Part shown: positions 21,611 to 32,061 of the stretch, in pieces
Numbering within the stretch: position 1 is the first letter of the stretch
Layout of the letters: every line of letters begins with the position of its first letter
Assembly: GCA_965213705.1 (NCBI GenBank)
Contig: OZ243913.1
Span: forward strand, 96,001 to 160,000
Direction: 5' to 3'
DNA length: 64,000 nt
Source: Trueperaceae bacterium
GTDB lineage: Bacteria; Deinococcota; Deinococci; Deinococcales; Trueperaceae
The notes under the pieces: model-generated
Database searches by the model: none
Seen by the model: only the letters and a program-made list of their open reading frames with translations
Told to the model about the DNA's origin: nothing
Program-made: the position numbers and the translations under genes

Positions 21611-24600
21611 ATGGTGACCCACGTCACGCTTTTGGGACGCGCCGCCATTTACACACAGGGCGAGCGGCTCGAGCCCCCCTTCGGCAAACTCACGGCGCTG
21701 CTCTACTACGTCGCCTATCAGGGGGGCTGGGTGAGTCGCGACGACCTCGTCTACCTGTTTTATCCAGATTTGGAGGAGCACAAGGCGCGGCAAAACCTCC
21801 GGCCGCTGCTCACCAAGCTGCGGCGGCTGCCCTGGGCGGCGGGGCTCGAGATTGAACCGACCCGGCTGCGCTGGAACGTGCCGACGGACACGGGAGCGTT
21901 CAAAGACGCGGTGGAAAAGGGTCACCTCGAGGAAGCAGTGGGGCACTACCGGGCCGAACTCCTCAGCGGGTTTCGGCTGAGCGCCGCGCCCGAGTTCGAT
22001 ACTTGGTTGGAAGTAGAGCGGAGCGAATTGCAGCGCAGTTGGCGCAACGTCACGGTGGTGTTGGCTGAAGAATTGTCAGGCCGCGGCTGCTACCGACAGG
22101 CCGCCGAACTGCTACACCGGCTGTACAAGGCGGACCCGCTCGACGAGGCGGCGTTCCGGCGTTACTTCACGGCGCTGGTGAGTGCCGGACAAAAGTCCGA
22201 GGCGCTGGAGGTTTTTGAGGCTTTCAAAAAAGTGCTGGACGACGAGGTGGCTACCGCACCCGAACAAGAAACCTGGGACCTCGTGTCACGGCTTCGCTCG
22301 GGTGACCTCGCCGTGGCCGGGCCGGTGCCGACCGGAGCCGCCACAAGACCGAAGCCGAACCGGCCGACCACGCGGTTCGTCGGGCGGACGACCGAGGTCG
22401 CCGAGGTCGTCACGCACCTGCGGGAACCCGCTTGTCGGCTGCTGAGCGTCCTCGGGCCGGGCGGCATCGGCAAAACGCGTCTGGCCGCCGAAGTAAGTGA
22501 ACTGCTCAGCGCCGAGTTCGCGGACGGGGTGTTTTTTGTTCCCTTCGACGTCGTCGCCGCACCCACGCTGATGGTACCCACCCTCGCCGACGCGCTCCAC
22601 TTTACTTTCGTTGCTGGACGCGACCCCGAAGACCAACTGCTCGAGCACCTCGCGCCCCAAAACTTACTGCTCGTCATGGACAACTTAGAGCACTTGCTGG
22701 AGGGCGTGAGCCTCGTTACAAACCTCTTGCAAGCCGCGCCTAAGCTCAAAATACTGGCGACCTCGCGCGAGCGTTTGGGGCTGCACGCCGAGTGGGTTTA
22801 CGACCTGGCGGGAATGCGGGTTCCCGACGTGGGTAGTTCCGAAGAGGACACCGACTTTGAGCAAGCAGACGCGGTCGAACTGTTCGTCCAAACGGCCAAA
22901 AAGGCTCGAGCCGACTTTGCCCTGAACGGCGACGTGGCAATCGTCGCCCACATCTGCCGCACCCTCGGCGGGATGCCGCTGGCGATTGAGTTGGCGGCGA
23001 GCTGGCTGCGCGTGCTCAGCCCAGCCGAGGTCGCGGCGGAACTCGCTAAAGGAATCGACTTGCTGGAAACCTCCTTGCGCGACCTACCCGAGCGCCACCA
23101 CGACCTGCGCGCGGTGTTCGGCGCTTCGTGGCGGCGTCTTGCGGAGGGTGAGCAAACCGCCCTGAAAAAGCTCGCCGTTTTTCAGGGCGGCTTCACCAAA
23201 GAAGCGGCCCTGGCCGTCGCCGCCGCAAGTCTGCCGCTCCTCCTCGGGCTCGTCAACAAGTCGTTTTTGTCTTTCGGAGGCCGGGGGCGGTTTGGGCAGC
23301 ATCCTCTCGTAAAGCAATATCTTTTGGACAAGGCCGCCCTCGAGCCCGAAAGCTTCGCCCAAACCCAGGCGGACCACGCCGCCTACTTTGCCGCTTTTAT
23401 GCAGCGCCGTGAAACAGCGCACCAGGGGATGACGGCCAAAGCGGTTCACGCCGAAATCGTCCCCGAGCTGCCCAACGTTCGCGCCGCTTGGTTTTACGCC
23501 GTAGCGAACGGACGCGAAGACGTGTTGGACGCGATGAGCGAGGGCGTGCTGGAAGTCTATACCAGCGCCGGGCGTCACGAAGAGGCCGAAGAGTTGTTCG
23601 CCCACGCCGCCGAACTGCAAACCCGCAGCCTCGTCCGTGGGCGCGTGTTGCGCAACTTGGGCCACGTGCACAACTGGCAGCTCGAGTACGCAAAAGCGGC
23701 CGAACTGCTCAACGCAAGCATCGCCATTTTTCAAGAACACCGAGCAAAACACGACGAAGCCGTGGCCTTGGGCTACCTCACCATAAACTACTCTTTTTCC
23801 TCTCGCCCGAGCTACGAGGTTCAGAAACTTAGGGAGGCGGCTGCAGTTTTGTTTAGAGAGCTTGGCGACAAAAACAACGAGGCCCGGCAGCTGAGCAACC
23901 TCGCCGAGTATTACCCCGACCCGCAGCGGAGAGAGCGTTCCTTCCGCGAAGCCGTCCGGCTTTTTCGGGAGGTTGACGGCTATTTCGGCATCACCTTGAC
24001 CCTGTGCAACCTGGCTTTTTCGCAAGCGACGACCTGGGGAGCGTACCGGGAAGCCGAAAGCTTGATAGCCGAGGCCGTGCGTGTAGAAAGAGAGCGGGGC
24101 ATGGCGTTTCGCTTGGCCTGGTGGCTGAACTGTCAGGGTGACAACGACCTCTGCCAAGGCCACCTGGAAGCGGCGGAAGCCCACTTTGACGAGGCCAGGC
24201 GCATCGGTGAAACCCTCGAGCCCGGTTTCGGTATGTGGGAACTCGAAAAGGCCGTGGCCGGTCTGGGCCGACTCGCTTGTCTGCGCGGCGACAACGCCGG
24301 AGCCAGAGGGTTGTTCACGCGCGCCCTCGAGCTGAACACGCGCCACGCCGACCCGATGGACGCGAAAACAAACATCCTGCTCGGCTTTTCTAAACTCGCG
24401 CTCAGCGAACACGCGCACTTCGAAGCCGAAGACCTCTGCCGTCAAACTGGCTTCGACAAACCTAACTTCTACGAGCTTGCTTACTACGTTTGGGAGGAGG
24501 TCGGTTACCTACGTCAGCTCGGCGCGGTCGCCGCGGCGCGGGCAGAGGCGGAAACGGCTAACAGTCATTTTCAGCGCGCGTTGGGCCTGGTTCAAAAATG

Positions 24601-24847
24601 GCACTTTCTGCCCGCCGCGCTCCAACTCTGCGCGGACTTCGCCGACCTCGCCCGGCGGCAAGGTGACGAACGGCGTGCCGCGCGTCTTTTCAAGCTCGCG
24701 GCCGACCATCCGGCCAGCCTGTTCGAAACCAAAGAAGCGGCTAAGTGGAGGCTCGAGACTTTACCCGCAACGGTTGTGACGGCAGAAGCGCGTGGGGAAG
24801 CTGCGGGGCTCGAGCGGGTCGTCGAAAGTCTGCTGCGAACCGGGTAA
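21611..24847 (+). CDS. AfsR/SARP-family regulator: wHTH-BTAD, STAND/NB-ARC-like ATPase, TPR repeats
   Basis: ALLYYVA...SRDDL..L.YPD, EFDTWLEVER, DPLDE; FVGR..E; GPGGIGKTRLA Walker A; LLVMDNLEH; GGMPLAIELAA; TPR-like C-terminus. TACAAT lies 5 nt before the ATG. Confidence 0.92.
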   Translation: MVTHVTLLGRAAIYTQGERLEPPFGKLTALLYYVAYQGGWVSRDDLVYLFYPDLEEHKARQNLRPLLTKLRRLPWAAGLEIEPTRLRWNVPTDTGAFKDAVEKGHLEEAVGHYRAELLSGFRLSAAPEFDTWLEVERSELQRSWRNVTVVLAEELSGRGCYRQAAELLHRLYKADPLDEAAFRRYFTALVSAGQKSEALEVFEAFKKVLDDEVATAPEQETWDLVSRLRSGDLAVAGPVPTGAATRPKPNRPTTRFVGRTTEVAEVVTHLREPACRLLSVLGPGGIGKTRLAAEVSELLSAEFADGVFFVPFDVVAAPTLMVPTLADALHFTFVAGRDPEDQLLEHLAPQNLLLVMDNLEHLLEGVSLVTNLLQAAPKLKILATSRERLGLHAEWVYDLAGMRVPDVGSSEEDTDFEQADAVELFVQTAKKARADFALNGDVAIVAHICRTLGGMPLAIELAASWLRVLSPAEVAAELAKGIDLLETSLRDLPERHHDLRAVFGASWRRLAEGEQTALKKLAVFQGGFTKEAALAVAAASLPLLLGLVNKSFLSFGGRGRFGQHPLVKQYLLDKAALEPESFAQTQADHAAYFAAFMQRRETAHQGMTAKAVHAEIVPELPNVRAAWFYAVANGREDVLDAMSEGVLEVYTSAGRHEEAEELFAHAAELQTRSLVRGRVLRNLGHVHNWQLEYAKAAELLNASIAIFQEHRAKHDEAVALGYLTINYSFSSRPSYEVQKLREAAAVLFRELGDKNNEARQLSNLAEYYPDPQRRERSFREAVRLFREVDGYFGITLTLCNLAFSQATTWGAYREAESLIAEAVRVERERGMAFRLAWWLNCQGDNDLCQGHLEAAEAHFDEARRIGETLEPGFGMWELEKAVAGLGRLACLRGDNAGARGLFTRALELNTRHADPMDAKTNILLGFSKLALSEHAHFEAEDLCRQTGFDKPNFYELAYYVWEEVGYLRQLGAVAAARAEAETANSHFQRALGLVQKWHFLPAALQLCADFADLARRQGDERRAARLFKLAADHPASLFETKEAAKWRLETLPATVVTAEARGEAAGLERVVESLLRTG

Positions 24848-30564: not shown

Positions 30565-30657
30565 CCGGTTTCACGTGATGGACAAACCTCGACGGCTGAG
30601 TCCGGGCTTGGTAGCCGCGCTCGGCTTACAGGTATGATGAGTCCGGGAGAGGTAGGA

Positions 30658-31581
30658 ATGACTCATGCACGTGGTGGGCATGAGCCGTTGACGTCGGGCT
30701 TAACGTTGCGCAAACACGGCGAATGTGTCGAAACGGTGGCGAGCAGCGCCCTCAGGGTTTGTCTGCTGGCAAATGGCGACGGTAGCGAACTGCTCCACGG
30801 CGAACTGCTCGCCGGACAGTTCATCACGCTCGTCTCCTCGGGGGAGGCGACCGAAAGCTACTACGTGTTGTCGGGAACTTTGCAGTTGGAAGACGGCGGC
30901 CGAACGCGCGTTTTGGGCGTGGGCGACACGCTCGTGACCGAGGGCTTGACGCAGCCGGTGGTACTTACGGCCAAAAGCGCGGCGCGGTTTTTGTGTTTTA
31001 CCTCGCGCCCTATTTTTCATGAGATGAGCCGCGACCTTGCGCAACTGATGGGGCTTGCCCGAGACATCGAACTCAAAGACGGCTACACCGCCGGCCACTG
31101 CGAGCGCATTCGTGAGTTCTCCAACGCGGTCGGACGCGAGTTGAAGTTGCCGCCCGAGCGGCGGCACCTGCTCAACTACGCCGCTTACCTGCACGACGTG
31201 GGCAAGACGCGGCTGCCCCTGGAGCTTTTGCGCAAATCGGAACCCTTGAGCGAGGCCGAGTGGGCCGAAGTCAAACGTCATCCCGACTACGGACGCGACC
31301 TGCTCGAGACGACGTTTATGCGGGCGGCGGGCGACATCGTGGCGCAGCATCACGAGCGGTTCGACGGCAGCGGCTATCCCTTGGGCTTAGCGGGCGAGGC
31401 TATTCTGAAAGAGGCGCGCGTCATCGCGGTCGCAGACAGCTACGACGCTCTTACCAGCGACCGCCCTTACCGCGCGGCCGTCTCGCAACCCACAGCGCTC
31501 GCAGAGTTGCAGCGGCAAGCCGGCCGCCTGTTCGACCCCGAGGTGGTCGCGGCGTTTCAAAAAGTTTTAGAGCAGCCCTAA
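30658..31581 (+). CDS. Cupin-like sensor + HD-GYP c-di-GMP phosphodiesterase
   Basis: N-terminal cupin-like ESYYVLSGTL...LGVGD; KDGYTAGHCER, LHDVGK, HHERFDGSGYP, VADSYDALTSDRPY. Confidence 0.9.
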   Translation: MTHARGGHEPLTSGLTLRKHGECVETVASSALRVCLLANGDGSELLHGELLAGQFITLVSSGEATESYYVLSGTLQLEDGGRTRVLGVGDTLVTEGLTQPVVLTAKSAARFLCFTSRPIFHEMSRDLAQLMGLARDIELKDGYTAGHCERIREFSNAVGRELKLPPERRHLLNYAAYLHDVGKTRLPLELLRKSEPLSEAEWAEVKRHPDYGRDLLETTFMRAAGDIVAQHHERFDGSGYPLGLAGEAILKEARVIAVADSYDALTSDRPYRAAVSQPTALAELQRQAGRLFDPEVVAAFQKVLEQP

Positions 31582-31681
31582 AACCGGCAGCGAACCTGTA
31601 CCAACCCCGCAGGTGTGAAACCTTGTACGGACTTCGTTTGAGTCCGGCGGCTATAGTTGCTTTTGAAGGCCCCAGCCTTCC

Positions 31682-31754
31682 CTCGGATGCAACGATCTCC
31701 GGTCCTCAATTTGGGCGCTTAGACCGGAAGGAGCGAGTAGCGCAACCGACCGAG
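31682..31754 (+). ncRNA. c-di-GMP-II riboswitch aptamer
   Basis: Closing stem ctcgg(31682-31686)/ccgag(31750-31754); GGA.GC.A.GA 5' element; inner stem tccggtc/gaccgga; loop tttgggcgct able to pseudoknot with agcgc; 3' GGAGCGAGTAGCGCAACCGACC matching the class consensus as I recall it (GGAGYnAGUAGYGCAACCGRCC). Confidence 0.8.
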
Positions 31755-31844
31755 TGCGACCCTACTCTCTTTGTCATGCACGCGCACTCATCACCCTTGG
31801 TTAAACCCTAGCCAAGCGCGGTGACAAGACTCTGCGGAGGGGTC

Positions 31845-31979
31845 ATGAACAAACACCTCAAAGTTTCTCTGTTGGTTATCAGTTTGCTGTTGGGCGGCGC
31901 CGGTTTCGCTGGAACCGCGCACGTGGGCGGCGCCTATACCGGCACCGCGACCGTCGCCAAGTTCTGGCCGAGCAAGTAA
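31845..31979 (+). CDS. 44-aa secreted peptide precursor downstream of the riboswitch
   Basis: Not in the ORF track. GGAGG RBS; MNKHLKVSLLVISLLLGGAGFA|GTAHVGGAYTGTATVAKFWPSK; n/h/c signal regions with a GFA cleavage site. Confidence 0.75.
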   Translation: MNKHLKVSLLVISLLLGGAGFAGTAHVGGAYTGTATVAKFWPSK

Positions 31980-32000
31980 CTTCAACCCTGATTCAGTTCG

Positions 32001-32061
32001 GCGGTCGGTAGGCGAGCTGCGCCAGACCGCTTTTCAGGCGGGTGCTCACGAGCACCCGCCT
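32001..32061 (+). terminator. Two tandem hairpins ending the peptide transcript
   Basis: gcggtc...gaccgc followed by tttt, then aggcgggtgctc-ac-gagcacccgcct. Confidence 0.65.

Follow-up and report, generated by a model that had tools for sequence, protein, structure and literature searches.

We describe here a gene pair found in a 64,000-nucleotide (nt) stretch of a Trueperaceae bacterium genome (assembly GCA_965213705.1, contig OZ243913.1, forward-strand positions 96,001 to 160,000; hereafter the window). A gene for a cupin-HD-GYP protein, predicted to be a cyclic di-GMP (c-di-GMP) phosphodiesterase, is followed by a c-di-GMP riboswitch and an open reading frame (ORF) for a 44-residue exported pre-peptide, and the pairing of such enzymes with exported partners recurs in the host genome's family and in Bacillota. 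We propose, giving the idea about an even chance, that the peptide is a Phr-like signal that would be exported, re-imported and sensed by the metal-free cupin of the adjacent HD-GYP phosphodiesterase. The riboswitch and the catalytic domain are members of known families, and it is the gene pair that seems to be the new element.

The proposal stands first of all on how regularly the two genes occur together. A profile of the cupin part matches 30/102 other genomes of the host's family (f1, likely Trueperaceae) and 0/198 genomes from other families of the phylum. The 61 locus entries in f1, less one duplicate and three genes truncated at the edge of a contig, leave 57 that are evaluable, and an exported partner adjoins the cupin-HD-GYP gene at 44/57, with 26 partners of a long type and 18 of a short type. 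A sequence-only reading of the window had proposed a module of enzyme and exported peptide; with these loci, and 18/18 Bacillota genomes, the module is conserved and far wider than one locus. Around 24 HD-GYP genes that lack the cupin, by comparison, there are 0 matches to the long-partner profile and one weak match to the short-peptide profile (E 0.019) without a tail, although this control is weaker than the test, most of its flanks being shorter (1.5 kb) and many of its genes long fusions. In these comparisons the pairing is specific to cupin-bearing HD-GYP enzymes. All three partner genes of the host genome sit beside cupin-HD-GYP genes, no orphan partner copy in that genome scores under E 1e-3, and the paralogous partners bear different tails (FWPSK, FRPEQ and FSYNY). 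The second complete pair in the host (G000:C1:187664-188819) has a 44-residue peptide that contains two cysteines and ends in another tail; the third (G000:C1:2315551-2319144) has a 105-residue lipoprotein-like partner, with an SBP_bac_5 gene about 1.1 kb later; no partner was found at a fourth cupin-HD-GYP enzyme (G000:C1:1945700-1946653).

Long partners in f1 are mostly 93-118 residues (243 in L050) and end in a beta hairpin followed by DP and a five-residue tail. A fold search with a long-partner model gave no Foldseek match at E 1e-3, and the best Z was 3.4. The short partners, of 41-49 residues (65 in L112), keep the signal peptide, linker and tail and have no folded core. An aromatic residue lies five from the end in 19/19 aligned short peptides and at 15/18 short-partner loci, the remaining three (L042, L096 and L112) carrying repeats instead. 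The tail is repeated in tandem at L038, L040, L042 and L096, the L112 partner consists of seven hexapeptide repeats, and peptide genes are doubled at L037, L086 and L087. On a quick tree the short-type partners need seven changes, which suggests repeated origin, though the starred branches force only two.

The same arrangement is seen in a second phylum. The cupin profile, which yields 266 representatives after clustering at 50%, with cupin-HD-GYP proteins of about 300 residues numerous among them, matches 18/401 genomes sampled from the phylum of a Paenisporosarcina genome (Bacillota), and named Paenisporosarcina species are among the carriers of the pair. In every one of these 18 genomes an exported ORF of 79-181 residues adjoins the enzyme gene, and the tails are of the same kind (16 with DP, one with VP, and a short form with NP). 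In 6/18 genomes (19 loci scanned) the partner gene comes directly after a class I c-di-GMP riboswitch. Class I and class II c-di-GMP riboswitches are structurally unrelated RNAs, and because the same gene sits under two different switches of the c-di-GMP family, it would belong in a cyclic-dinucleotide feedback loop; this is the strongest sign that it does. By hhalign, long partners from f1 and from Bacillota are homologous (96.7%, E 4e-10), and a Bacillota-only partner profile has 20 matches among 6084 frames, all of them partner ORFs and seven of them short peptides, with signal peptides contributing to its score. At L141:361-845, tandem class I aptamers precede a 79-residue exported ORF that has no folded core and keeps the tail, a Bacillota counterpart of the short peptides. 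Class I aptamers at L142:768-851, L143:2504-2587 and L144:773-856 have an A at the position of G20, followed by a terminator-like hairpin, and the accompanying enzymes have two cupin matches. In Geobacter this substitution moves specificity toward 3',3'-cyclic GMP-AMP (3',3'-cGAMP), and some modules may work on cGAMP.

The enzyme of the window (30658..31581, + strand; 307 residues) was characterized by domain scans, an AlphaFold2 model, a fold search and alignments. An N-terminal cupin (about residues 11-117) is joined by a linker helix to the HD-GYP domain, and no signal peptide is seen. The HD-GYP domain carries HDxGK, HHExxDGxGYP and RPYR, its HD and its metal and substrate residues are intact, and Pfam assigns HD_5 at E 4.5e-38; Cupin_2 is weak (E 4e-4) and below the cut-off. 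The model (pLDDT 89.5) has the HD-GYP fold and matches known structures of both kinds, HD-GYP domains at E 2e-13 and cupins at E about 1e-7. The catalytic motifs and fold are conserved over 84 aligned proteins, and we predict that the enzyme hydrolyzes c-di-GMP. A Tyr occupies the position at which tri-metal HD-GYP enzymes have Glu, making two metals likely. The cupin is a metal-free cupin fold without the metal histidines: no His is conserved in 18 or in 84 aligned cupin parts, the His/His/Glu/His set is missing, and the conserved residues are two Glu and two Gly. Longer proteins that carry GGDEF or EAL motifs (P0097, P0098, P0144, P0158 and others) contain the same cupin, which may therefore serve c-di-GMP enzymes generally as a sensor module. 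At L054 (G006), an in-frame TAG interrupts the cupin part of the cupin-HD-GYP gene and the long partner is intact. GGDEF matches in the host genome (4.25 Mb) number 30 and HD-GYP-like genes 10, and the enzyme of the window may or may not be the one that governs the c-di-GMP concentration sensed by the riboswitch, as the sequence-only reading had supposed. Upstream of the phosphodiesterase gene, TATGAT at 30633..30638 (+) is a candidate -10 element, read by eye; a sigma-70 scan found no two-box promoter for the gene.

The peptide ORF (31845..31979, +), which the sequence-only reading had added to the gene track, holds up: its GGAGG ribosome-binding site (RBS) lies at 31836-31840, and it is conserved in a same-genus genome (L046, G001) and in P0003. 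A predicted signal peptide (residues 1-22; 31845-31910, +) is followed by a variable linker and a conserved C-terminal tail, the last five residues of which are FWPSK (31962-31976, +); signal peptides were judged by charge and hydrophobicity, and cleavage after residue 22 by eye. Compared with L046, the last nine residues are identical down to their codons and 10/12 of the preceding residues differ, with 11 synonymous changes overall and the frame kept through a 3-nt indel. The last 5-9 residues form the conserved unit. An exported peptide of about 22 residues had been anticipated, but it is not the whole 22-mer that is conserved. We rejected AHVGG as the active motif of the peptide, since it is not kept in L046. 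Pfam and NCBIfam scans place the 44-residue peptide (P0001) in no family, Phr included, and give weak, scattered matches for short, long and Bacillota partners, none above cut-off; a relative of the peptide reaches PhrK at E 0.09 and 13 bits, below the cut-off of 35. A search of the ESM Atlas returned no usable match.

Between the two genes, beginning about 95 nt past the HD-GYP stop at 31581, lies the aptamer (31676..31760, +). Its recognition by eye as c-di-GMP-II-like is borne out by the covariance model of Rfam RF01786 (score 62.1 bits, gathering threshold 53.5, E 1.9e-11). P1 is formed by 31682-31686/31750-31754 (+) and the P4 pseudoknot by 31715-31719/31739-31743 (+). The bases given as ligand-contacting for structure 3Q3Z in PMC13715770 (A69, A70 and G73) have equivalents at 31744, 31745 and 31748, mapped by counting from the AACCG motif. 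We predict that the aptamer binds c-di-GMP and switches expression. The GCGCU/AGCGC pseudoknot had been singled out as a departure from the usual sequence; the pairing is real, but we reject it as an unusual feature, for all 8 aligned leaders have it and all 6 class II aptamers of the host genome (four of them above cut-off) read GGGCGC and AGCGC. Taken alone, the riboswitch is ordinary in the family, with a class II aptamer above cut-off in 50/61 genomes, and the class has already been noted in Deinococcus deserti (PMC4007540). An aptamer of this class lies between enzyme and partner at 11/57 f1 loci, seven above the RF01786 cut-off, two above that of RF03169, one at E 0.014 and one by core pattern. 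L037 and L092 were considered as true GAG-specificity variants and rejected; they have A-A-G at the contact positions and a loop insertion, though their best Rfam family is RF03169. Elsewhere in the host, weaker class II aptamers at L005 and L006 (G000:C1:878891 and 3132824) are followed by lipoprotein-like ORFs whose seven-residue Trp/Gly repeats, arranged in tandem, come before a motif we take to be subtilisin-type.

Shortly 5' of the aptamer, the leader alignment reveals a conserved -10 box, GCTATAGT (31650..31657, +), whose G, C, T, A and last T are invariant in 8/8 aligned leaders. Because these leaders share the box, the peptide gene likely has its own transcript from its own promoter. 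About 35 nt further 5', a TG(T/A)AAA-type element (31613-31622) recurs in most aligned leaders and is a possible regulator site or -35 equivalent. On the other side of the aptamer, folding and the leader alignment indicate an anti-P1 helix (31752..31789, +) of 31752-31758 with 31783-31789, its end pair G-C here and in L046 and A-U in L048 and L090. Folding also gives a spacer hairpin (31791..31824, +), at whose position most relatives have a hairpin of differing sequence. When the 3' strand of P1 is free in the model, the anti-P1 helix forms and encloses a pyrimidine tract, the anti-RBS segment (31758-31769); taking that strand away, to mimic the bound state, lets the tract pair with the RBS region (31836..31844, +). 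Of the two alternative pairings earlier envisaged for 31755-31769, that with the RBS therefore survives in the model (31758-31769, with P1 formed), but the conserved competitor of P1 in the absence of ligand is the anti-P1 helix, and not mainly a pairing with gagtagcgca.

These folds predict an OFF switch on translation, in which high c-di-GMP would block the RBS, in line with the previous suggestion that low c-di-GMP permits peptide translation. The cost of opening the RBS is higher in the bound model in 9/9 leaders (by 0.3-7.9 kcal/mol; 3.2 here), and in 6/9 at most 3/100 shuffles reach the value (3/100 here); the comparison is one of related sequences under a simplified two-state model, with L093 and L087 left out. 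A first constrained fold gave the OFF direction in 7/9 usable leaders and a nearly equal or opposite one in two, L093 being outside the set. The whole-leader fold, which ignores the pseudoknot, is no more stable than shuffles (z 0.16). Past the peptide stop, the 96 nt that follow fold with z -4.8. Two hairpins had been reported here: one is a perfect, terminator-like 11-bp hairpin (32036..32061, +) that would close the peptide transcript, but the other (about 32001-32030) competes with alternative folds.

Put together, the riboswitch would block translation of the Sec-exported 44-residue pre-peptide at high c-di-GMP. Once made, the pre-peptide would be exported and its signal peptide cleaved, as predicted, and a C-terminal tail of five to six residues might then be released by an outside protease, taken up by an Opp/Dpp peptide transporter, and bound by the cupin sensor of the neighboring enzyme. 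By analogy with Rap-Phr, we lean modestly toward inhibition of the enzyme as the likelier effect. Peptide accumulating with cell density would then shut off the phosphodiesterase, c-di-GMP would rise, and the riboswitch would stop peptide synthesis, completing a negative feedback loop. The host genome has 13 SBP_bac_5 peptide-binding genes, and genes for peptide-binding proteins lie beside 4/83 loci probed, a weak hint at uptake. Genic and intragenic duplications are described for phr genes in PMC5199041; tail repeats and doubled peptide genes match these, and thus count in favor of a Phr-like reading. A clade of partner-less cupin-HD-GYP genes (L095, L101 and L108) stands divergent from an SBP_bac_5-like gene for a peptide-binding protein.

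Several observations weigh against this proposal. All steps after export, namely peptide processing, import and cupin binding, along with expression, are ones that we infer. No partner was found at 12/57 loci, even with a looser scan, and at 1/57 the peptide has no tail. The test loci are mutually related, and they also served to build the short and long profiles. A profile-profile comparison of short and long partners aligned their signal peptides only (61%), and for this reason the kinship of the two types, which we consider likely, rests on tail pattern and gene position. A lipoprotein-like appearance is common among the long partners, and for one of them a folded core is predicted with confidence, which a mere peptide precursor would not need. 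The leaders of L048, L053 and L037 (3/9) do not beat their shuffles. A complex prediction with two copies of the enzyme and peptide residues 15-44 scored 0.00 against a mark of 0.32 with controls that did not fold, and counts neither for nor against the proposal. Finally, the remaining five class II aptamers of the host genome precede long ORFs that start with a signal peptide or lipoprotein signal.

Because those five riboswitches stand before large exported proteins or lipoproteins, the local norm is a structural product that is exported and controlled by c-di-GMP. The peptide might likewise be a structural or surface product of the c-di-GMP regulon (a matrix component, adhesin or self-assembling strand), with the enzyme as a local regulator and no signal back to the cupin. 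The predicted folded core of the long form is in keeping with such a role, as are the hexapeptide repeats of L112 and the alternating hydrophobic, beta-strand-like residues of the tails. We nonetheless consider it unlikely, if the best of the rivals, since coupling is restricted to the cupin-bearing enzyme, with 0/24 controls matching the long partner and one weak, tail-less short match. The partners have no orphan copies in the host genome, their tails differ between paralogues, and most of the 46/57 family loci at which no riboswitch was detected keep a partner.

A somewhat less probable alternative is that the peptide does signal, but to a membrane receptor (a histidine kinase or a diguanylate cyclase) that is encoded at another locus and detects it outside the cell, the cupin being left to sense a small metabolite. 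Small molecules are the usual ligands of cupins (a point of general knowledge, also made in PMC3249071), the GGDEF matches of the genome could supply such receptors, and an exported peptide would need no re-import. Yet the constant neighbor of the peptide gene is a cytoplasmic enzyme, and among the loci examined for short exported ORFs no membrane receptor gene was seen to accompany the pair, though that scan was not a systematic search for receptors. Slightly less probable again, the partner might act in its own cell, the unexported pre-protein binding the cupin by its tail until Sec export removes it, in which case the pair would report secretion capacity rather than cell density. This would account for the one-to-one gene pairing and for the folded and membrane-anchored long forms, which would then need no protease to release them, but tandem tail units of 5-7 residues fit proteolytic release better, and the few neighboring peptide-binding-protein genes hint weakly at uptake. 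A chance neighborhood of ordinary riboswitch, ordinary enzyme and spurious ORF is very improbable and already largely refuted: the riboswitch is common in the family and 116 short ORFs genome-wide pass a loose signal-peptide filter, but the pair is conserved across phyla, the ORF differs from that of L046 by 11 synonymous changes and keeps its frame through a 3-nt indel, and the aligned leaders share the RBS and the -10 box.

Other observations lie outside the pair. A 41-residue signal-peptide ORF without a tail (G000:C1:1994295-1994417) is flanked by a REC-HD-GYP gene and by a long ORF that resembles a regulator (TPR-like by eye), and the locus is possibly a separate peptide system. The window itself contains a 16S rRNA gene (17336-18861, -) and a 1078-residue ORF (21611-24847, +) that by eye resembles a transcriptional activator-NTPase-TPR regulator.

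A full-text literature search did not turn up a description of the pair, though subscription papers, surveys of HD-GYP architectures or riboswitch variants, and supplements may bear on this. For most c-di-GMP enzymes no input signal is known, and the cytoplasmic peptide receptors described so far are, to our knowledge, TPR proteins or close to them. A peptide-reading cupin that gates a phosphodiesterase directly would, if true, be a new receptor fold for peptide signaling and would couple cell density to the biofilm switch without intermediates. With it, Deinococcota would have a peptide signaling system beside the acyl-homoserine lactone (AHL) and autoinducer-2 (AI-2) systems listed for the phylum in a review (PMC6300522). 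The broader version of our proposal, to which we assign somewhat less than an even chance, is an independently evolved, non-TPR form of peptide signaling. In it, a pentapeptide from an exported precursor would be read by a metal-free cupin that gates a phosphodiesterase, and riboswitches would have been recruited to the loop on two occasions, from class II in Deinococcota and from class I in Bacillota. Short peptides would be stripped-down descendants of an older precursor of about 100 residues, and paralogous pairs would serve as separate channels.

Some known systems come close in part. In fold and catalytic motifs the enzyme resembles the HD-GYP phosphodiesterases 4MCW, PA4781 (4R8Z) and DvhD (9RBZ), but its sensor is a cupin rather than a GAF, REC or PAS domain. 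The riboswitch shares with 3Q3Z (PMC13715770) the P1-P4 layout and the A69/A70/G73 equivalents; it differs in the 14-60 pair, U-G here and A-U there, and it controls an ORF of 44 codons. The C. difficile (Clostridioides difficile) agr locus is a peptide signaling locus that affects c-di-GMP genes (PMC3754575), but there agr acts through AgrA, a LytTR transcriptional regulator, and has no cupin-HD-GYP partner. The closest parallel is Rap-Phr and the wider RRNPP group (PMC5199041). There, too, a short gene with a secretion signal lies beside the gene for a cytoplasmic enzyme, the C-terminal 5-6 residues are conserved, and a genome may hold several paralogous pairs with different peptides. Unlike RRNPP systems, however, this pair would use a cupin joined to HD-GYP as its receptor and c-di-GMP as its output; precursor proteins of 92-181 residues (243 in L050) occur as well, and peptide synthesis is placed under a c-di-GMP riboswitch. 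Pfam and NCBIfam scans of the 307-residue protein find no TPR family, and its model is a beta-strand cupin with an HD-GYP domain; because no TPR domain is found, the pair is, by these scans and this model, not an RRNPP system.
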